Below, one piece after another: positions 23,696 to 31,885 of a stretch of DNA of 64,000 bases. Below the pieces are notes generated by a model, which was not told the origin of the DNA, ran no database searches, and saw nothing but the letters and a program-made list of their open reading frames with translations. The number at the start of each line of letters is the position of its first letter. Position 1 is the first letter of the stretch. Both the position numbers and the translations under genes were made by a program. Source of the stretch: Gemmatimonadales bacterium (GTDB taxonomy: Bacteria > Gemmatimonadota > Gemmatimonadetes > Gemmatimonadales > GWC2-71-9); contig DATECF010000116.1 in NCBI GenBank assembly GCA_035287045.1, forward strand, positions 16,098 to 80,097, in the 5' to 3' direction.

Positions 23696-25138
23696 ATGCT
23701 CCAGCGAGTGGACGTGGGCCGGATCAGCCTCGACACCTACGAGTCGGCCGCCGGTGGCGAGGTGGTCGAGCAGCTCAAGGAGTTGGCCAAGCCGCTGCGC
23801 GGGGTGCGCCTTCTCCATGTGAACGCCACGCCCTACGGCGGGGGGGTGGCGGAGATCCTGCGGGCCGAGGTCCCGCTGCTCCGGGATCTGGGGATCGAGG
23901 CGGATTGGCGGATCATCACCGGCGGCGAAGCGTTCTTCCGGACCACCAAGGCCATCCACAACGGGCTTCAGGGAGCGCCGCAAGACCTGACCGACCGCGA
24001 TCGCGACGTATTCGTCGAGAATGCCAGGCGCAACGCCGAGCTCCTGGAGGCCGAGAGCGATATTCTCTTTATCCACGACCCGCAGCCCGCCGGCATCCTC
24101 CAGTACCACGGCAAGGGAACGGCGAAGTGGATCTGGCGGTGCCACATCGATACGTCGCAGCCAAACCCGAACGTCTGGAGTTTCCTGCGGCCGTTCCTGA
24201 CCGCCTACGATGCCGCCGTCTTCACGCTGGGCGGATTCGTTCCGCCCGATCTGCCGATCGAGCGGGTCGAAATCATCCCGCCCGCCATTGACCCGCAGAG
24301 CCCCAAGAATCTGGAGCTCACCAACGGCCTGGCGAACGCCGTGCTCCAGTGGATCGGCGTACGCACCGAACGGCCGCTGATCGCTCAGGTGAGCCGCTTC
24401 GATCCATGGAAGGACCCCATGGGGGTCATCCACGCGTACCGGATAGCGAAGGCCGAGATCCCCGAGCTCCAGCTCGCGCTGGTGGGCTCCATGGCGCTGG
24501 ACGACCCCGAGGGATGGGACATCTACAACCAGATTCGCGATGAAGGCGCCCGCGACCACGACCTCTTCATCTTCACCAACCTGACGGGCGTGGGAAACAT
24601 CGAAGTGAACGCCTTCCAACGGATGTCCGACGTGGTCATCCAGCTTTCGACCCGGGAAGGCTTCGGCCTGGTGGTGTCCGAGACCCTGTGGAAGAACACC
24701 CCCGTGATCGCGCGCGCCGTGGGCGGCATCCCGTTGCAAATGGAGGGAGGAGTCGGCGGCGCGCTGGTGAAGACGGTGGAGGAGTGCGCCGAGTACATCG
24801 TCCGGTTTGTCCGGGACAAGAAGACGGCGCAAGAGCTGGCGGCCAGGGGCCGCGAGCTGGTGCGCGATCGCTTCCTGCTCACGCGCATGATCGCCGACGA
24901 GCTCCGCCTGTACCAATCGGTGCTGGGGATGCGGCGGCCGCGTCCAACACCGGCCGCGATGGCGGGATTGGTGGACGAGGCCCGCTGTCCGGTGTGCGGC
25001 CGGGCGGTGGACGCGGACACGGCGCCCACGCTGACTCGGGACGGGCGGCGCTATCTGTTTGACGGCCCGGAGTGTCAGGAGCGGTTTCGCGAAGACCCGG
25101 AGCGCTTCGCGCGCGGTCACCCCGGCGCGCCTGCGTGA
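23696..25138 (+). CDS. treT: Trehalose synthase TreT-like GT4 glycosyltransferase with C-terminal YHS/TRASH domain
   Basis: [35 protein letters not shown]; C-terminal CPVCG-x-YLF-x-EC-x-F. Confidence 0.85.
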
Positions 25139-25144
25139 CCGGCG

Positions 25145-26146
25145 GTGCCTGAGCTTCGCCGGGACCCAACCACCGGGACGTGGACCATCCTCGCGGTGGA
25201 GCGCGCCGCCCGCCCCGGCGGCCGCCCGCAGAGCCCTCCGCCCCCGCCGGACGAGGACCACCTCGCCAGCTGCCCCTTCTGCCCGGGCAACGAAGATCAG
25301 ACGCCGCCCGAGATCTTTCGGCTACCGCCTGGTGCGGCCCGCTGGTCGGTGCGGGTCGTACCCAACAAGTATCCAGCGCTGACCCCCGACGCCGACCAGC
25401 GCGTGACCCACCGGCAGGACTTGCTATGCAGCCTGCCCGGCCGAGGCCACCACGAGGTGATCATCGAAGGACCCCGGCACCGCCCCACCGCGGCCCCGCG
25501 GGAGGCCGAGACGCTCCGCGATGTCTTCCTGGCGGCCCGCGAACGCGGTCGGGCGTTCTCGACCGACCCGGCGCTCCGACACGTTGCGCTGTTCAAGAAC
25601 CATGGCCCGGCGGGTGGCGCATCGCTGGCGCACCCCCACTGGCAGCTGGTGGCGTTGCCCGTGATTCCTCCGGCCGTCGCCCGGGAGTTCCAGATCGCGG
25701 CCGAGTATCGCGAAGCCCATGGACGGGCGATGCTGGAGGATCTGGTGAGCCTGGAGCTCGAGAGTGAAACCCGCGTCGTCGAGATCACCGACGAGTTCGC
25801 CGTCCTGGCAGCGTACGCCCCACAGTGGACCGGCGAGACCTGGATTGTGCCGCGTGCCCCGGTGGCCGGCCTGCAACACCTGGACGACGCCGGCCTCGAT
25901 GCCCTTGCCGGGACGCTCTGGCGCACCCTGCGCCGCGTGGCGGGAGCACTGGACGAGCCGGCCCTGAACGTGGTCGTCCATTCCGCCCCGTTGGGTGTCG
26001 GGGCGGCGAGTGAGGCTTTCCGGTGGCATGTGCGCCTTCAGCCGCGACTCGGCACGCCAGCGGGATTCGAGCTGGGCTCGGGTGTCGCAGTCGTGACGCT
26101 GGCCCCCGAGGCCGCCGCCGAAGCCTTCAGGCGCCAGCCGCTGTGA
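25145..26146 (+). CDS. galT: Galactose-1-phosphate uridylyltransferase family protein
   Basis: ELRRDP, CPFCPGNE, VVPNKYP, HEVIIE, GASLAHPHWQ. Confidence 0.9.
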   Translation: MPELRRDPTTGTWTILAVERAARPGGRPQSPPPPPDEDHLASCPFCPGNEDQTPPEIFRLPPGAARWSVRVVPNKYPALTPDADQRVTHRQDLLCSLPGRGHHEVIIEGPRHRPTAAPREAETLRDVFLAARERGRAFSTDPALRHVALFKNHGPAGGASLAHPHWQLVALPVIPPAVAREFQIAAEYREAHGRAMLEDLVSLELESETRVVEITDEFAVLAAYAPQWTGETWIVPRAPVAGLQHLDDAGLDALAGTLWRTLRRVAGALDEPALNVVVHSAPLGVGAASEAFRWHVRLQPRLGTPAGFELGSGVAVVTLAPEAAAEAFRRQPL

Positions 26147-26178: not shown

Positions 26179-26670
26179 TTACCGGGTCGCGACCAGACGT
26201 TGCCGGGTATACGGGATGAGTCCGCCGGCGTTGATGATTTCCTGACGCGACGGCGGGAGCGACACCACCGGATCCCGCTTCCCCGTCCTCAGATTCACGA
26301 CCTCCGCCGCATCCACCTCGAGGTTGTCGCCCACCGATGCGTCCAGGGTGGGGCACGTGACGACGCGCAGCCCCAGGTTGATCGCATTCTGGAGAAAGAT
26401 CCGCGCGAAGCCCCGGGCCATGATCGTCAGGTCATACCCCTTGAGGCAGGAGACCGCCTGTTCGCGGGACGACCCACACCCAAAATTCCTTCCGGCGACG
26501 ACGATGCTGCCCGGCGGAATCTCCTGAGCCTTGAGCTGTCCATTGAAGGCGGCGTCATCGGCGAACGCGAATAGCGGGGTCTCGGTCGGAAGGACCGTCG
26601 CCATGTACCGTCCCGGGTAGATCACGTCGGTCGAGATGTCGTCACCCAGCGTATAGACCACCGTCGCCAT
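26179..26670 (-). CDS. 3-isopropylmalate dehydratase/homoaconitase family small subunit
   Basis: LGDDISTDVIYPGRY, AGRNFGCGSSREQA, FARIFLQNAINLGL, AGGLIPY. Confidence 0.92.
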   Translation of the reverse strand: MATVVYTLGDDISTDVIYPGRYMATVLPTETPLFAFADDAAFNGQLKAQEIPPGSIVVAGRNFGCGSSREQAVSCLKGYDLTIMARGFARIFLQNAINLGLRVVTCPTLDASVGDNLEVDAAEVVNLRTGKRDPVVSLPPSRQEIINAGGLIPYTRQRLVATR

Positions 26671-26671
26671 G

Positions 26672-27970
26672 TCAGTGCCCTCCCCGGCCAATTCGGGGAT
26701 CGGTGATCACCCCCGTCACCGCCGAGGCGGCCGCGACCGCCGGCGAGCAGAGATAGACCTCGGACCTGGGGTTGCCCATCCGCCCCTTGAAGTTCCGGTT
26801 GGTGGTGGAGAGGGCGACTTCACCGTCTCCCAGCGCGCCCTCATGCACCCCCAGGCACGGCCCGCAACCGGAGTTCATGACCACCGCCCCCGCTTGCATC
26901 AAGGTCCCGACGTAGCCGTGCTCGATCGCCTGCCGGTAGATCCTGGTGGACGCCGGGAAAACCAGCATCCGGGTGCCGGCCGCCACCTTCCGGCCCTCGA
27001 GAAACCGCGCGGCGACGGCCAGGTCGTCCAGCCGGCCATTGGTGCAGGAGCCGATCACGACCTGGTGCACCCGCCGCCCCGCCACCTCCGCGACCGGACG
27101 CACGTTGTCCACGGTGTGCGGGCAGGCGATCTGCGGCCCGAGGCCGGACACATCCACCTCGATCGTTCGCTCGTACGCCGCGTCCTCATCCGGCAGCACC
27201 GGCTGCACGGCCTCGGTAACGCCGGCCTCGCCCCGCAGATACCGCCCCGTCTCATCATCCGCCGGGACGATCCCGGACGTCGCTCCCGCCTCCACCGACA
27301 TATTGCACAACGTGAGCCGGCCCGACGTGGACATCCGGCGGACGGCGTCGCCGTGGAACTCCAGCACCCGGAAGTTGGCGCCTTCCGCTGTCAGCTCACC
27401 GATGAGTCTCAGGATCAGGTCCTTGGAGCCCACACCGTCTTGGAAGGTCCCCCGTACCACCACCTTGATGGTGTGCGGGACCTCTACGTTCAGCACGGTG
27501 CCCAACGCCCATACGCTGGCCATCTCCGTGGCGCCGATGCCGAACGCGAAGGCACCGAGAGCCCCGTGGCTGGTGGTGTGGGAATCGGTGCCGACGACGA
27601 CGGCGCCGGGCCGCACGTAGCCGTTCTCCGGGAGGACCTGATGACAGATCCCCCCCACGTCGCCGCGGATGTCGTGGAAGCGCGCGATCTGGTGCGCCGT
27701 CACGAACTCGCGGACCATCTTCTGGTTGCTCGCGGTCTTGGACGATTCCGCGGGGACCCGATGGTCGAAGACGATCACCACCCGGCCCGGATCCCAAATC
27801 CTCGGTGTGAGCCCGGTCCCGGCATATACGTCCAGGAACTGGTTGACGACCAGCGCCGCGTTTTCGTGCGACATCGCCAGGTCCACCCGCGGTTCCACCA
27901 CGTCACCCACCGCCACCGCCGGCAGACCCGACGCGCGGGCGAGGATCTTCTGCACCACCGTCATGCCCAT
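26672..27970 (-). CDS. 3-isopropylmalate dehydratase/homoaconitase family large subunit
   Basis: GTDSHT, GSCTNGR, GCGPCLG, STTNRNFKGRMG aconitase motifs. Confidence 0.93.
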   Translation of the reverse strand: MGMTVVQKILARASGLPAVAVGDVVEPRVDLAMSHENAALVVNQFLDVYAGTGLTPRIWDPGRVVIVFDHRVPAESSKTASNQKMVREFVTAHQIARFHDIRGDVGGICHQVLPENGYVRPGAVVVGTDSHTTSHGALGAFAFGIGATEMASVWALGTVLNVEVPHTIKVVVRGTFQDGVGSKDLILRLIGELTAEGANFRVLEFHGDAVRRMSTSGRLTLCNMSVEAGATSGIVPADDETGRYLRGEAGVTEAVQPVLPDEDAAYERTIEVDVSGLGPQIACPHTVDNVRPVAEVAGRRVHQVVIGSCTNGRLDDLAVAARFLEGRKVAAGTRMLVFPASTRIYRQAIEHGYVGTLMQAGAVVMNSGCGPCLGVHEGALGDGEVALSTTNRNFKGRMGNPRSEVYLCSPAVAAASAVTGVITDPRIGRGGH

Positions 27971-27972
27971 GA

Positions 27973-29172
27973 TTACACCACCCCCTTCGCCCGCAGTGCG
28001 GCCACCTCATCCCGCGAGATGCCCAGCGTGCCCAGGACCGCCGCCGTGTCGGCTCCAAGACGCGGCGGCGGCCCGCCGATGGCCCCGGGCGTCCTGGCGA
28101 ACTTCGCGGTCAGCCCGAACAACCTCACCGGTCCCACGCCCTCCACTGGAACCTCCGTGAGCACGGCGCGGTGCTCCGCCTGGGGCTGACCCAGCGCCGC
28201 CTCGAGACTCAGGATCGCGCCACTGGGAACGTCCCTCGTGTTGAGCAACTCCACCCACTCGGCCGTGGGACGCTCCACCAACTTCGCCTCAATGAGGGGC
28301 GTCAGCGCCTTGCGGTTCCTTTTACGGGTGTCACGCTTCTGGAAACGCGGATCGGTCTTCAGCTCCGGCACGCCCAACACCTCGCACAGGGCCTCCCACT
28401 GCTCCTGCTTGTTCGCGGCGATGTTGATGTAGCCGTCCTTGGTGCGAAACGTCCCCGACGGCGCGGCGGTGAAATTGTCGTTCCCCAACGGCACCGGCTG
28501 CTGCCCGCCGATCAGGAGATTCGCCGCCACCCACCCCATGAGCGGCATGATCGAGTCCAGCATCGCCACGTCAATGAACTGACCCTCGCCGGTCCGCTCG
28601 CGGTGGTACAGCGCCGCCATGATGGCGAACGCCGCGTTGAGCCCGCCCACGGTGTCGCACACCGGGAACCCGCAGCGCAGGGGGTTGAGGCGCTCGTCCC
28701 CGTTGATGGCCATCACCCCGCTCAGCCCCTGGATGATCTGGTCGTACGCCGGCTTCAGGGCGTCCGGGCCGGTCTGCCCGAACCCCGAGATGGCGCAGTA
28801 GATGAGCCGCGCGTTGATGGCCGCCAACGTGTCGTAGCCCAGCCCCAGGCGGGGCATCACGTCGGGGCGGAAATTTTCCACCAGGACGTCGGCCGTCCGG
28901 ACCAGGCGTTGGAAGATCTCTTTGCCCTCCGGGTTCTTGGTGTTCAGCGTCAGCGACTTCTTGTTGGCGTTCTGCGCCAGGAAGCTGGTCCCCATCAGCT
29001 GATCGTTCAGCTCGGGACAGACCCCGAGCTTGCGAGCCAGGTCGCCGTCCTTGGGGTTCTCGATCTTGATGACCTCGGCGCCCAGGAGCGCCAGGTGCAA
29101 GGTGGCGAACGGGCCAGCCAGGACGTTGGTGAGGTCGAGCACGCGGATACCTTCCAGCAGCGCGCGGCTCAT
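27973..29172 (-). CDS. Class III CoA-transferase (CaiB/BaiF family)
   Basis: LEGIRVLDLTNVLAGP, ADVLVENFRP, CAISGFGQTGP, AYDQIIQ; start moved to ATG 29172 (ATGA overlap). Confidence 0.93.
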   Translation of the reverse strand: MSRALLEGIRVLDLTNVLAGPFATLHLALLGAEVIKIENPKDGDLARKLGVCPELNDQLMGTSFLAQNANKKSLTLNTKNPEGKEIFQRLVRTADVLVENFRPDVMPRLGLGYDTLAAINARLIYCAISGFGQTGPDALKPAYDQIIQGLSGVMAINGDERLNPLRCGFPVCDTVGGLNAAFAIMAALYHRERTGEGQFIDVAMLDSIMPLMGWVAANLLIGGQQPVPLGNDNFTAAPSGTFRTKDGYINIAANKQEQWEALCEVLGVPELKTDPRFQKRDTRKRNRKALTPLIEAKLVERPTAEWVELLNTRDVPSGAILSLEAALGQPQAEHRAVLTEVPVEGVGPVRLFGLTAKFARTPGAIGGPPPRLGADTAAVLGTLGISRDEVAALRAKGVV

Positions 29173-30080
29173 GCGGCTCCCTGGGCCGGAACCGGTCCGG
29201 TCTTGTACACGTAACCGGGCAGGTCGCGGCCGAAGTGCTCGGCCACGCATCGGGCCACGGTAATGAGACGAGCCAGATCCATGTCGTGCCGCAAACCCTG
29301 ACGCTGCAGCGCATGGACCAGGTCTTCGGTCGCCACGTTGCCTGCTGCCACCTTGGTGAACGGGCAACCCCCGAGGCCGGCGAACGAAGTCTCGAATGAC
29401 GTCACGCCAACCCTCAGGGCCGCGAACACGTTGGCCATGCCCAGGCCGTAGGTGTTGTGGAAGTGGCAGGTGCATTCGACGCCGGGCTCGAGCCGCAGCA
29501 CCTCGCTGAAGAGTCGCTCCACCTGCGCGGGATTGGCGTGCCCCGCGGTGTCGGCCAGGCTGACGCTCCGTAACCCGGCCTCGAGATACGCGCGCACCAT
29601 TCCCAGAACGCGTTCCTGTGGTACCGGACCCTCGAACCCGCAGCCGAACGCCGACTGCACCGACACCTGCACCCGCTTGCCGGCCGCTGCGGCCTGTTTC
29701 GCCGCGGCCACGATCCGCGAGGTCGCCTCCCCGGTACCCATTCCGGCGTTCCTCCGGCTGTGGGTCTCGCTGGCGGAGGCGCCCAGACAGAACATCTCCA
29801 CGCCGCAGGCGAGCCCCCGCTCCAGGCCTTTCTCGTTGAGCACCAGGCCGGACAGCACGACGGCCGACCGCTTGTCCCGGGTCAGCCGGCGAAACAGCTC
29901 GTCCGTATCCGCCATCTGCGGGACCTTCTCCGGACGGACGAACGAGCCGACCTGGACGATGTCCACGCCCGCCGCCATGGAAAGGCGAATCCATTCCTCT
30001 TTTTGGTCGGTGGGTGGGGGTACCTTCTCCATTTGAAGCCCGTCACGGGGACCCACCTCGTGAATCACGATGCGCTGCAT
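29169..30080 (-). CDS. Hydroxymethylglutaryl-CoA lyase family enzyme (DRE-TIM metallolyase)
   Basis: EVGPRDGLQ, LADTAG, HFHNTYG, GLGGCPF, GNVATED. Confidence 0.92.
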   Translation of the reverse strand: MQRIVIHEVGPRDGLQMEKVPPPTDQKEEWIRLSMAAGVDIVQVGSFVRPEKVPQMADTDELFRRLTRDKRSAVVLSGLVLNEKGLERGLACGVEMFCLGASASETHSRRNAGMGTGEATSRIVAAAKQAAAAGKRVQVSVQSAFGCGFEGPVPQERVLGMVRAYLEAGLRSVSLADTAGHANPAQVERLFSEVLRLEPGVECTCHFHNTYGLGMANVFAALRVGVTSFETSFAGLGGCPFTKVAAGNVATEDLVHALQRQGLRHDMDLARLITVARCVAEHFGRDLPGYVYKTGPVPAQGAA

Positions 30081-30089
30081 GGCTCCCCT

Positions 30090-31208
30090 CTAGAGCTTCG
30101 CCGCCACCGCGCAGCCTATGTCCACGGTGGAGCTGGTGCCGCCCATATCGTAGGTGCGCACCAGACCTTCGCGAATCACCCGGGCCACCGCGCCCTCCAC
30201 GGCCTGTGCCTTCTCCCGCTCACCCAGCCAGTCGAGCATCATCTTGGCCGCGAGGATGGTGGCGATGGGATTCACCTTGTGCTGCCCGGCATACTTGGGC
30301 GCGGAGCCGTGACTGGGCTCGAACACCGCGAGCCGGTCGCCGATGTTGCCGGAGCAACCGAACCCCAGGCCGCCCACCATCTGGGCGCACAGGTCCGAGA
30401 TGATGTCCCCGTAGAGGTTGGGCGCCACCAGCACGTCGTAGTTGAAGGGGTTCTTGAGCAGCCACATCGCCATGGCGTCAATGTTGGCGTCGTCCACCTG
30501 GATCTCGGGGAACTCCGCGGCCACGGCGCGCGCCGTCTCCAGGAACAAGCCGTCGGTGGCGCGCACCACGTTCGCCTTGTGCACGATGGTGACCTTCTTC
30601 CGGCGGTGCTCCCGCGCGAACTGGAACGCCGCGCGCGCGATCCGCTCCGACCCGGCACGGGTGTTGATCTTGCAGGAGATCGCGTATTGGTCGCCCGGCA
30701 GTTTGGCGAAGGGCACGAACGGCTTGGCCAGACGCGCGAGCGTGTCCCCGAGCTCCCTGGGAACGGGACCGAATTCGACGCCGGCATACAGATCCTCGGT
30801 GTTCTCCCGAAACACGACGAGATCGATGCCTTCCTTGAAGTTCAGCGGGTTGCCGGGGTAGGCCTTGCATGGGCGGAGGCAGGTGTAGAGATCGAACATC
30901 TGGCGCATCCGGACGATCGGCGAGCGGTAGGTGAGGCCGCTGTCTCGCAGCTCCGGCGCCAGCTCGGCGGCGGCGGCCTTGACCGGCTTGGACGTGATGG
31001 CGCCGAACAGGGCGGCGTCCACGTTCTTGAGCAGATCCACCGTGCGGGCCGGGAAGGCGTCGCCCTCGCGGCACCAGAAGTCCCACCCGATGTCGCCGTG
31101 CAGGTACTCGGCGTCCAGGTCGAGGCCATCCAGCACGATCCTGGTGGCGTCGAGCACCTCCACGCCGACCCCGTCTCCGGGCAGCCAGGCGATCCGATAC
31201 GTGGCCAT
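30090..31208 (-). CDS. Isocitrate/homoisocitrate/isopropylmalate dehydrogenase family enzyme
   Basis: LPGDGVG, RENTEDLY, HKANV, NLYGDIISD, EPSHGSAP. Confidence 0.93.
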   Translation of the reverse strand: MATYRIAWLPGDGVGVEVLDATRIVLDGLDLDAEYLHGDIGWDFWCREGDAFPARTVDLLKNVDAALFGAITSKPVKAAAAELAPELRDSGLTYRSPIVRMRQMFDLYTCLRPCKAYPGNPLNFKEGIDLVVFRENTEDLYAGVEFGPVPRELGDTLARLAKPFVPFAKLPGDQYAISCKINTRAGSERIARAAFQFAREHRRKKVTIVHKANVVRATDGLFLETARAVAAEFPEIQVDDANIDAMAMWLLKNPFNYDVLVAPNLYGDIISDLCAQMVGGLGFGCSGNIGDRLAVFEPSHGSAPKYAGQHKVNPIATILAAKMMLDWLGEREKAQAVEGAVARVIREGLVRTYDMGGTSSTVDIGCAVAAKL

Positions 31209-31246: not shown

Positions 31247-31309
31247 AGGCGACCAATTATGAATTTTTCGAGGAGGAAGTCTGAACGACCGTGTAGAGTC
31301 GGCGGGGAC

Positions 31310-31639
31310 TCAGTCCACCACGAACAGCTTTGCGCCGTTGGGGGTGAACGACCGGTGCGGTTCCGCGCCATCCGCCACCTGGTAGCTCATGCCGGGTGTG
31401 AGGACTACCTCGCGGCCGTCCCGCAGCTGGGTGCGCAGTTCGCCTTGCAGACAGAGGAGGATGTGCCCCTTCTCGCACCAATGGTCGGCCAGATAGCCCG
31501 GGGAGTACTCCACCATGCGCACCCGAACGTCGCCGAACACGCGGGTGCGCCAGTAGGCTACCCCCGTCTCTCCCGGGTGCTCGACGGGCGTGACCGTGGC
31601 CCAATCAACCGTCTGGAAGGGTATGTCGCGCAGATGCAT
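31310..31639 (-). CDS. DHCW motif cupin fold protein
   Basis: RMVEYSPGYLADHWCEKGH, GMSYQVAD, EPHRS. Confidence 0.9.
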   Translation of the reverse strand: MHLRDIPFQTVDWATVTPVEHPGETGVAYWRTRVFGDVRVRMVEYSPGYLADHWCEKGHILLCLQGELRTQLRDGREVVLTPGMSYQVADGAEPHRSFTPNGAKLFVVD

Positions 31640-31723
31640 AGGGACGCGGCTCCCAGGTGAGGTAGCCTCCGGCGCTCGGCCTTTACGGCGCCCGCCAGTT
31701 CTCACCGCGGGTCAGGCAGCACC

Positions 31724-31885
31724 CTACGGAAGGTAGCTTCGGGCGATCTGCGCCCCGAAGTAGACGCCCGCCGCGGTACCCACAATGCTTAACAGAAAAG
31801 CAGTCATGGTGCCAACGCGGGCACCCAACCACCAGCCGACGGCGCCACCCACCGTGGCGCCCACGAAGGCCAGAAGTCTCTTCAT
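31724..31885 (-). CDS. Small hydrophobic Gly-rich membrane protein, 53 aa, absent from ORF track
   Basis: Hand translation MKRLLAFVGATVGGAVGWWLGARVGTMTAFLLSIVGTAAGVYFGAQIARSYLP; fills the intergenic gap in operon orientation. Confidence 0.7.
   Translation of the reverse strand: MKRLLAFVGATVGGAVGWWLGARVGTMTAFLLSIVGTAAGVYFGAQIARSYLP

Follow-up and report, generated by a model that had tools for sequence, protein, structure and literature searches.

In this work we analysed a five-gene operon carried by a 64,000-nucleotide stretch (the window) of contig DATECF010000116.1, which belongs to a 4.2-Mb metagenome-assembled genome (MAG) of a Gemmatimonadales bacterium (GCA_035287045.1). The operon encodes a β-decarboxylating dehydrogenase, an enzyme of the 3-hydroxy-3-methylglutaryl-coenzyme A (HMG-CoA) lyase family (HMGL), a class III CoA-transferase and the two subunits of a LeuCD-type dehydratase. 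We propose, tentatively and with a chance that we put slightly below even, that it shortens a 2-oxoacid by one carbon by running the upper α-aminoadipate pathway in reverse, from 2-oxoadipate to 2-oxoglutarate and acetyl-CoA; which way the pathway runs, what its substrate is and which compound donates CoA are our inferences. The parts belong to ordinary families, and what is new is the presence of a lyase together with a CoA-transferase at the place of the synthase within a LeuB/LeuCD-type operon. An earlier note on this DNA, made by a model from the letters alone, had seen a module without synthase in a pathway that it did not recognise as described. Both statements hold: no synthase of the LeuA, CimA or homocitrate synthase (HCS) type is encoded among the five genes, and our literature search found no published pathway via homocitryl-CoA, isopropylmalyl-CoA or a homocitrate lyase, and no comparable operon. 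Also new here are the ilvC, LeuA and gltA profiles of the carrier genomes, the lack of orthology with the Sct/Ccl pair of Chloroflexus and the finding of three mutually exclusive variants.

Organization and distribution of the operon

The five open reading frames (ORFs) span 26179–31208, all have high third-position GC, and their junctions in gene order are 9 nt, a 4-nt overlap between the lyase stop and the transferase start, 2 nt and 1 nt (Table 1), in agreement with the five tightly packed, co-oriented genes of the earlier note. For the LeuD-like ORF, the longest start called by the ORF finder is a TTG at 26691. None of the five proteins reaches an NCBIfam equivalog cut-off. In a sample of 301 Gemmatimonadota genomes (the phylum sample), lyase orthologs (at least 65% identity) are found in seven, and dehydrogenase orthologs (at least 70% identity) in the same seven only, so that co-occurrence of the two is perfect; the order dehydrogenase–lyase–transferase–LeuC–LeuD is kept in 7/7 of these loci. 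A wider scan, with one genome per GTDB species, gave at least 576 relatives, of which the best 80 loci were examined for gene order. Nearly all sufficiently long loci among them (about 60) have the five genes in this order, at 60–86% identity. These best 80 loci come from at least 10 phyla, and include Gemmatimonadota, Acidobacteriota (with the cultured Geothrix fermentans DSM 14018), Chloroflexota, Ignavibacteria, Elusimicrobia and Zixibacteria, as well as MAGs labelled Latescibacterota, Fibrobacter, Gammaproteobacteria, Haliangium and Chlorobiaceae. Given this recurring order in the phylum and in others, the arrangement is far beyond chance, and the co-conservation on which the earlier note made its reading depend is borne out. 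The catalytic residues of all operon enzymes are intact and invariant in about 59–80 orthologs.

The operon behaves as a self-contained unit. Identity between phyla is very high, while the citrate synthases of the carrier genomes fall into different score classes, and the distribution within the phylum is patchy; this suggests horizontal spread. No conserved neighbour was found: the most frequent neighbouring family occurs in at most 12 of 81 loci, and the flanks differ within the phylum as well. In Thermoanaerobaculia the operon is split cleanly into lyase–transferase and dehydrogenase–LeuC–LeuD, at separate places, and therefore consists of two sub-modules. Where the dehydrogenase has been relocated, in Ignavibacteria and Zixibacteria, its neighbours gave no useful clue. 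When a Chloroflexota ortholog served as the seed of a homology search, all matches were unnamed or labelled 'HMG-CoA lyase'. In four loci from long-read-derived MAGs (L066, L077, L105 and L109), the transferase, dehydrogenase or LeuC appears as two adjacent tblastn pieces, which suggests frameshifts, from assembly errors or from decay.

The five enzymes and the proposed reactions

The dehydrogenase (294 bits against PF00180) is, by its sequence, an NADP-type β-decarboxylating dehydrogenase of a distinct subfamily. Its top NCBIfam match is the AksF2 homoisocitrate dehydrogenase, at 334 bits and below the cut-off of 540, and its closest solved relative is the Thermus homoisocitrate dehydrogenase (HICDH). 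Residues R102, R112, R134, Y141, K211, D244, D268 and D272 are invariant in the alignment, and the catalytic Arg/Tyr/Lys/Asp set is present. The cofactor motif APKYAGQ.KVNP is kept and is the K-Y motif of NADP-dependent isocitrate dehydrogenases, which would suit reductive carboxylation. A 13-amino-acid insertion (ITSKP...) precedes the specificity helix YRSPIVRMRQ, which is invariant in 59 orthologs and carries two arginines, Arg95 and Arg100, the latter aligned with Tyr86 of Thermus HICDH. Compared with the Thermus segment GAIRYLR, the segment SPIVRMR has Val at position 85 and Arg at position 86, and neither Arg85 nor an equivalog score marks the protein as a HICDH. The 3AH3 sequence differs from wild-type Thermus HICDH at positions 72, 85 and 86, and we take it to be a HICDH variant evolved towards 3-isopropylmalate. 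Of the two residues diagnostic of isocitrate dehydrogenase (Ser113 and Asn115 in Escherichia coli), Ser is kept but Asn115 is replaced by an invariant Ile; the positions of Leu90/Leu91 in isopropylmalate dehydrogenase are occupied by Ile/Val.

The dehydratase subunits belong to the aconitase family, and family scores and motifs class them as an archaeal LeuC/HacA-type large subunit and a LeuD/HacB-type small subunit. The LeuC-like protein scores 547 bits against PRK00402, 480 against HacA_Meth (cut-off 550) and 442 against LEU2 (cut-off 611), and is equidistant from the large subunits of the Methanocaldococcus jannaschii isopropylmalate isomerase and homoaconitase (393 versus 386 bits). The LeuD-like protein matches TIGR02087 and remains below the cut-offs of leud (107 versus 246) and HacB2 (99 versus 230). 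The motifs GSCTNGR and GCGPC, which hold the three Cys ligands of the cluster, and GCGSSREQA, all characteristic of the family's large and small subunits, are invariant. The small-subunit loop is a specificity determinant, and a Pyrococcus horikoshii small subunit can replace that of the Thermus homoaconitase (PMC7308503). In the operon's LeuD this loop reads PGRYMATVLP, with the MATVLP part invariant, and its YMAT differs from the loops of isopropylmalate isomerase (ARYLVY) and of methanogen homoaconitase (GPYLRT), so that neither loop nor equivalog score assigns the protein. The loop (GRYMATV) is closest to GKYTYTV of the nearest paralog, and it resembles GKDYTYR of a homoaconitase that passes the equivalog cut-off. 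The P. horikoshii loop, YNLT, has no Arg either, and because this subunit can serve a homoaconitase, the missing Arg in our LeuD is not decisive.

The lyase scores 134 bits against PF00682 and is the only one of the five proteins to pass a subfamily model, that of HMG-CoA lyase (PRK05692, 272.6 bits for a cut-off of 246). It has the hallmarks of that family: a DRE-TIM domain with the Arg-Asp pair in RDGLQ, the metal-binding His-x-His motif, the catalytic Cys loop GLGGCPF and the Asn, with R12, D13, H206, H208, C239 and N248 present in all orthologs; no LeuA_dimer domain was found in it. We propose that it is an acyl-CoA lyase that would split a 2-substituted malyl-CoA into acetyl-CoA and a 2-oxoacid. 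The transferase (417 bits against PF02515, CaiB/BaiF) has as its nearest characterised relatives the succinate-glutarate and succinate-hydroxymethylglutarate CoA-transferases, and the Asp of its VCDTVGG motif, invariant in orthologs, shares an alignment column with the Asp conserved in five solved homologs, as in class III enzymes. That the pair is a plain HMG/HMG-CoA module merely co-located with unrelated LeuCD and LeuB paralogs could be argued from the HMG-CoA-lyase match, the full set of catalytic residues and the closest solved transferase, which is a succinate-hydroxymethylglutarate enzyme. We find this scarcely credible, since the five genes are strictly co-conserved with translational coupling across phyla and the dehydrogenase always accompanies the lyase in the phylum sample. 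Moreover, lyase orthologs form a tight group (at least 62% identity) whereas solved HMG-CoA lyases are only about 40% identical to the lyase, and HMG is not an α-hydroxy acid and therefore no substrate for an aconitase-family enzyme.

In the route that we propose, the dehydrogenase would carboxylate 2-oxoadipate reductively, with CO2 and NADPH, to homoisocitrate, and LeuCD, acting as a two-subunit homoaconitase-type enzyme, would convert this via cis-homoaconitate to homocitrate. The class III transferase would then move CoA from a donor, probably succinyl-CoA or acetyl-CoA, to the carboxymethyl arm of homocitrate, and the lyase would cleave the resulting homocitryl-CoA to acetyl-CoA and 2-oxoglutarate. 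No synthase would be needed, because lyase and transferase would together do the synthase reaction in reverse without spending a thioester. The upper α-aminoadipate pathway and the methanogen AksA/AksDE/AksF system use the same families for the isomerisation and β-decarboxylating dehydrogenase steps. The operon differs from them by its lyase and CoA-transferase in place of a LeuA/HCS-type synthase, by its NADP-type cofactor motif, by the absence of both Thermus Arg85 and methanogen homoaconitase Arg26, by its proposed reverse direction, and by its occurrence mostly in genomes without LysX. The earlier note had offered catabolism of a branched di- or tricarboxylate as one of two functions, and this direction is also ours; its example of homocitrate cleaved to 2-oxoglutarate and acetyl-CoA is the reaction favoured here, on account of the sister clusters described below and of the HICDH-like dehydrogenase, whereas entry from citraconate or citramalate appears less likely than entry of a 2-oxoacid by reductive carboxylation.

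Paralogous clusters, direction and substrate

The most telling evidence on the direction comes from paralogous clusters. Exactly one close homolog of the dehydrogenase is present in each of 27 genomes of the phylum sample, 7 times in this operon, 17 times in a second cluster and 3 times in a third, and no genome has more than one of the three variants, as would be expected if they solved one task interchangeably. The nearest paralogs share the 13-amino-acid insertion and the SPIV helix. In the second cluster, whose dehydrogenases are 50–57% identical, 7/7 inspected loci have the same order: HD-domain protein, PrpD-like dehydratase, fused LeuCD, dehydrogenase, CitD/CitE fusion, CitF-like protein. 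The fused LeuCD reaches 745.8 bits against TIGR00139 'homoaconitase' (equivalog cut-off 529.9), and CitF, CitE and CitD all remain below the citrate-lyase cut-offs, the CitF-like protein (477 bits) just under its own. Homoaconitases of the fungal and Thermus types are known to carry out only the cis-homoaconitate/homoisocitrate half-reaction, a limit that the PrpD-like partner fits. This cluster is a candidate for an acyl carrier protein-dependent 'homocitrate lyase' pathway, apparently undescribed. The third cluster (dehydrogenases 58–62% identical), present in three genomes (L157 in G006, L158 in G009 and L159 in G022), encodes a succinyl-CoA-synthetase-like α/β pair whose β subunit has the citrate-binding domain of ATP-citrate lyase, after which come genes for an HD protein, LeuCD and the dehydrogenase, and then either a second LeuCD or a PrpD-like gene; the stretch examined showed no lyase. 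The citrate-lyase complex is a cleavage enzyme and the ATP-dependent CoA ligase would suit activation ahead of cleavage, so that cleavage fits better than synthesis. More broadly, the operon could represent an undescribed, mobile, catabolic reverse aminoadipate route present in many phyla, whose 'anti-synthase' step would have been invented at least three times, as lyase plus transferase, as a CitDEF-like complex with a PrpD-like dehydratase and as a ligase like citryl-CoA synthetase; this wider proposal is plausible, but we hold it to be rather more probably wrong than right.

The metabolic background of the carriers bears on the direction. We profiled 24 carrier genomes for LeuA_dimer, ilvC, gltA and LysX; the LeuA_dimer domain was detected in all of 14 control genomes. 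The LeuA_dimer domain is present in only 4/24 carriers, ilvC is above cut-off in 7/24, leaving 17 without, and the source genome has neither ilvC nor a LeuA_dimer protein. Three prototrophic carriers, Geothrix fermentans, G234 and G312, have a separate leuA-leuC-leuD-leuB operon whose proteins are 31–37% identical to those of the five-gene operon. Leucine or isoleucine biosynthesis is ruled out by these observations. Canonical leuABCD and CimA–LeuCD–LeuB operons likewise group LeuB-, LeuC- and LeuD-family proteins, but the present one has no LeuA, is divergent from the leu proteins of the same organisms and occurs mainly in genomes without ilvC; it has neither the synthase, nor the ilvBCD host, nor the status of sole LeuBCD copy that membership in such operons would imply. 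The possibility, raised in the earlier note, that these are the only leucine copies is thus set aside. A citrate synthase gene, gltA, is present in 23/24 carriers, which rules out a replacement of citrate synthase, and LysX, the marker of aminoadipate lysine synthesis, is above cut-off in 1/24.

These profiles also bear on the second function put forward in the earlier note, a thioester-conserving elongation in which the lyase would condense acetyl-CoA with a 2-oxoacid, the transferase would pass the CoA on, and LeuCD and the dehydrogenase would finish the conversion. All steps are chemically reversible, the gene set amounts to LeuB, LeuC and LeuD with a surrogate of LeuA, and the strong sequence conservation resembles that of core metabolism. 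Nevertheless, we consider this direction quite unlikely: in the 17 carriers without ilvC, 2-oxobutyrate or 2-oxoisocaproate would be of no use for de novo isoleucine or leucine synthesis, the carriers are mostly auxotrophic for branched-chain amino acids, all but one of the 24 have citrate synthase, and only one has LysX. The citrate-lyase-type and ATP-dependent CoA-ligase enzymes of the sister clusters fit cleavage, and the distribution (7/301 phylum genomes) is patchy and looks horizontally acquired. Cleavage is thus favoured because most carriers lack ilvC and LysX, because of the NADP-type K-Y motif and, above all, because of the sister clusters.

Cleavage of citrate instead of homocitrate would carboxylate 2-oxoglutarate and lead via citrate and citryl-CoA to acetyl-CoA and oxaloacetate, a transferase analogue of the citrate-cleaving branch of the reductive tricarboxylic acid cycle. 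That branch, with citryl-CoA synthetase and citryl-CoA lyase, and likewise citrate lyase (CitDEF), follow the same logic as our proposal: a thioester of a 2-substituted malate-type acid is formed and an acetyl-thioester is cleaved from it, downstream of an aconitase-type isomerase and a reductively carboxylating isocitrate dehydrogenase-type enzyme, and the paralogous clusters use CitDEF-like and citryl-CoA-synthetase-like proteins. In favour of citrate, no compound is a closer analogue of HMG-CoA than citryl-CoA; prokaryotic NADP-isocitrate dehydrogenases have the NADP motif, the Arg-Ser pair and a clasp-like insertion in common with our dehydrogenase; citrate-lyase-like and citrate-binding-domain proteins are encoded in the sister clusters; and genes of the phosphoenolpyruvate (PEP)-mutase/isocitrate-lyase family stand beside or inside the operon in two loci. 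The operon differs from these systems by its soluble class III CoA-transferase and by a DRE-TIM lyase of the HMGL family instead of CitE. We regard citrate as very unlikely, since the Asn that binds the isocitrate γ-carboxylate is an invariant Ile, the standard enzymes are already there (AcnA, a canonical NADP-isocitrate dehydrogenase and an NAD-isocitrate dehydrogenase-like enzyme in the source genome, and gltA in nearly all carriers), the sister dehydratase matches homoaconitase and not aconitase, and its CitDEF proteins score below the citrate-lyase cut-offs.

The substrate evidence for homocitrate and 2-oxoadipate is mixed. Homocitrate is favoured because of the TIGR00139 match and the sub-threshold CitDEF of the sister cluster, the proximity of the dehydrogenase to HICDH and AksF2, its NADP-type K-Y motif, its invariant Arg95 and Arg100, the likeness of the LeuD loop to that of a homoaconitase, the nearest characterised transferases, which act on C5–C6 dicarboxylates (glutarate, hydroxymethylglutarate), and the saccharopine-dehydrogenase-family neighbours. 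These lie next to the operon in five loci of Chloroflexota and Elusimicrobia, with four different arrangements. Several observations weigh on the other side. The saccharopine-dehydrogenase-like orthologs are confined to these two groups and missing from the source genome, and their genome-level profile shows no correlation outside Chloroflexota. The reasoning from paralogous clusters assumes that the substrate class is conserved at 50–60% identity. Lysine synthesis runs via the same intermediates, and tight regulation would therefore be needed to avoid a futile cycle; this concerns the source genome itself, which probably makes lysine via the aminoadipate/LysW route, as it encodes LysX (340 bits, above cut-off) followed by LysZ-, LysJ- and LysK-like genes (contig C164:26900-32100) and two short (about 416 amino acids) LeuA/homocitrate-synthase-like genes (C75:30115-31362 and C84).

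The remaining contrary points concern the pocket and the neighbours, and they suit the same reverse chemistry on alkyl-substituted substrates. The starting 2-oxoacid would then be either 2-oxobutyrate, from threonine or methionine, processed via 3-methylmalate, citraconate and (R)-citramalate to pyruvate and acetyl-CoA, or 2-oxoisocaproate, from leucine, processed via 3- and 2-isopropylmalate to 2-oxoisovalerate and acetyl-CoA. The equivalent of Thermus HICDH Arg85 is Val and that of methanogen homoaconitase Arg26 is Ala, each of which by its own rule makes the pocket look alkyl-type, as do the Ile/Val of the dehydrogenase at the IPMDH (isopropylmalate dehydrogenase) leucines. The best solved matches of LeuC and LeuD are, by small margins, the M. 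jannaschii isopropylmalate/citramalate isomerase. About seven loci encode a 2-oxoacid:ferredoxin oxidoreductase next to the operon; by score these enzymes are of the pyruvate/2-oxoisovalerate type and not of the 2-oxoglutarate type, and one kind has a GltD-like NAD(P)H module. There are also amino-acid-linked neighbours: an L-type permease in the window, a Liv-type ABC transporter in L124, and M17 aminopeptidases in L043, L051 and L052. Finally, in Chloroflexus aurantiacus, Sct is a succinyl-CoA:(R)-citramalate CoA-transferase and Ccl an (R)-citramalyl-CoA lyase that releases acetyl-CoA and a 2-oxoacid. Alkyl substrates nonetheless appear unlikely to us, as prototrophic carriers keep the dedicated dehydrogenase and LeuCD beside canonical LeuBCD enzymes, which normally handle isopropylmalate and citramalate, as two arginines of the specificity helix are invariant, as the paralogous clusters point to tricarboxylates, and as the Chloroflexus pair is only distantly related to ours. 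Other or promiscuous substrates take up what probability remains.

The Chloroflexus pair resembles our lyase and transferase in being adjoining members of the same families with similar subunit sizes. No genome with the 3-hydroxypropionate bicycle turned up when we scanned the class to which one 'Chloroflexia' MAG belongs; in a phylum-wide scan, mesaconyl-CoA C1–C4 transferase was above cut-off in 21 genomes, whose HMGL homologs are 36–45% identical to the lyase of the window. The genome with the transferase–lyase pair is presumably that of C. aurantiacus J-10-fl, on the strength, in part, of its mesaconyl-CoA transferase match. There the lyase is 38% and the transferase 33% identical to ours, the transferase precedes the lyase, and no LeuCD or dehydrogenase gene lies within 9 kb, which rules out orthology and makes Sct/Ccl distant paralogs. 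The textbook citramalate-type cleavage module to which the earlier note compared the two genes is thus only distantly related to them.

If the reverse aminoadipate proposal is correct, the operon would be a new bacterial disposal route for lysine-derived (or other) 2-oxoacids that uses a CO2-fixing step and a lyase, and that would deliver two central metabolites with no net thioester loss. 2-Oxoadipate is otherwise known to be degraded by oxidative decarboxylation to glutaryl-CoA or by the HglS route. At least several hundred species-level genomes of soil and sediment bacteria carry it (Gemmatimonadota, Acidobacteriota, Chloroflexota, Ignavibacteriota, Elusimicrobiota and others), and the genes are at present labelled one by one as 'HMG-CoA lyase', 'CoA transferase', '3-isopropylmalate dehydratase' and 'isocitrate/isopropylmalate dehydrogenase', labels that mislead metabolic reconstructions, for instance by implying leucine synthesis in auxotrophs. 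The lyase and transferase would also offer a natural and reversible substitute for synthases of the LeuA/CimA/HCS type, and be of interest where keto-acid elongation is engineered.

Features of the locus and neighbouring genes

Table 1. Positions of the operon genes, of features upstream of them and of the second-cluster loci (window coordinates unless a locus is named)
Feature	Position	Strand	Length	Domain or remark
Dehydrogenase	30090-31208	-	372 aa	PF00180
HMGL-like lyase	29169-30080	-	303 aa	PF00682
Class III CoA-transferase	27973-29172	-	399 aa	PF02515
LeuC-like large subunit	26672-27970	-	432 aa	PF00330
LeuD-like small subunit	26179-26670	-	163 aa, counted from ATG	PF00694
Promoter-like element TTCAGA-18-CATAAT	31256..31285	-		AT-rich patch ~50 nt upstream of dehydrogenase start
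Cupin-like protein	31309-31638	-	~109 aa	MHLRDIPFQ...DHWCEKGH...
Gly/Ala-rich putative membrane peptide	about 31723-31884	-	~53 aa	
Second-cluster loci	L161 (G023:C1), L160, L162-L164, L166			

The element TTCAGA-18-CATAAT is promoter-like and a putative promoter of the operon; it is a pattern match alone, in a consensus scan that found 3 sites for 0.5 expected. A search of the operon and its upstream region against Rfam found no element. Two small ORFs (Table 1) fall within the 700 bp that separate the operon from the permease upstream of it. On the other side, 3' of LeuD, the convergent neighbours (window 23696-26146) are a GalT-like gene, a TreT-like glycosyltransferase (with a weak YHS match) and an M20 peptidase, which are kept in close relatives (L128:11167-14477) and not in more distant carriers.

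In other genomes, several neighbours are worth recording. In four loci (L064:2412-6750, L065, L075 and L081) the γ subunit of the adjoining oxidoreductase carries, as fusion partners, a GltD-like Fer4_20/Pyr_redox_2 module and a ferredoxin domain, an NAD(P)H-linked architecture like that of phenylglyoxylate dehydrogenase. By inference, such an enzyme could regenerate NADPH, CO2 and a CoA thioester, and the conversion would then be redox- and CO2-neutral. Of the two PEP-mutase/isocitrate-lyase-family genes, which share 32% identity, one (L122:5966-6796, in a Gemmatimonadota relative) stands directly upstream of the dehydrogenase and the other (L102:11599-12543, in an Ignavibacteria MAG) separates the transferase from LeuC; they possibly encode a 3-substituted-malate lyase or an oxaloacetate decarboxylase. 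In one Thermoanaerobaculia locus (L068:10150-11547), the stand-alone lyase–transferase pair precedes genes, on the same strand, for a DcuC-family dicarboxylate carrier and an M14/AstE-like peptidase.

The source genome contains further LeuCD-like sequences. Contig C84 (2978 bp) carries a second LeuC/LeuD pair, 49% and 38% identical to that of the operon, then a 147-amino-acid fragment like the N-terminus of phenylacetate-CoA ligase, and finally the first part of a homocitrate-synthase-like gene that the contig end truncates, an arrangement that may be an assembly artefact or a pseudogene. Contig C45 (24370-26460) encodes a protein of 679 amino acids in which a LeuD-like domain is N-terminal to a LeuC-like one, in swapped order; this fusion is below all NCBIfam cut-offs, and no leu gene adjoins it.

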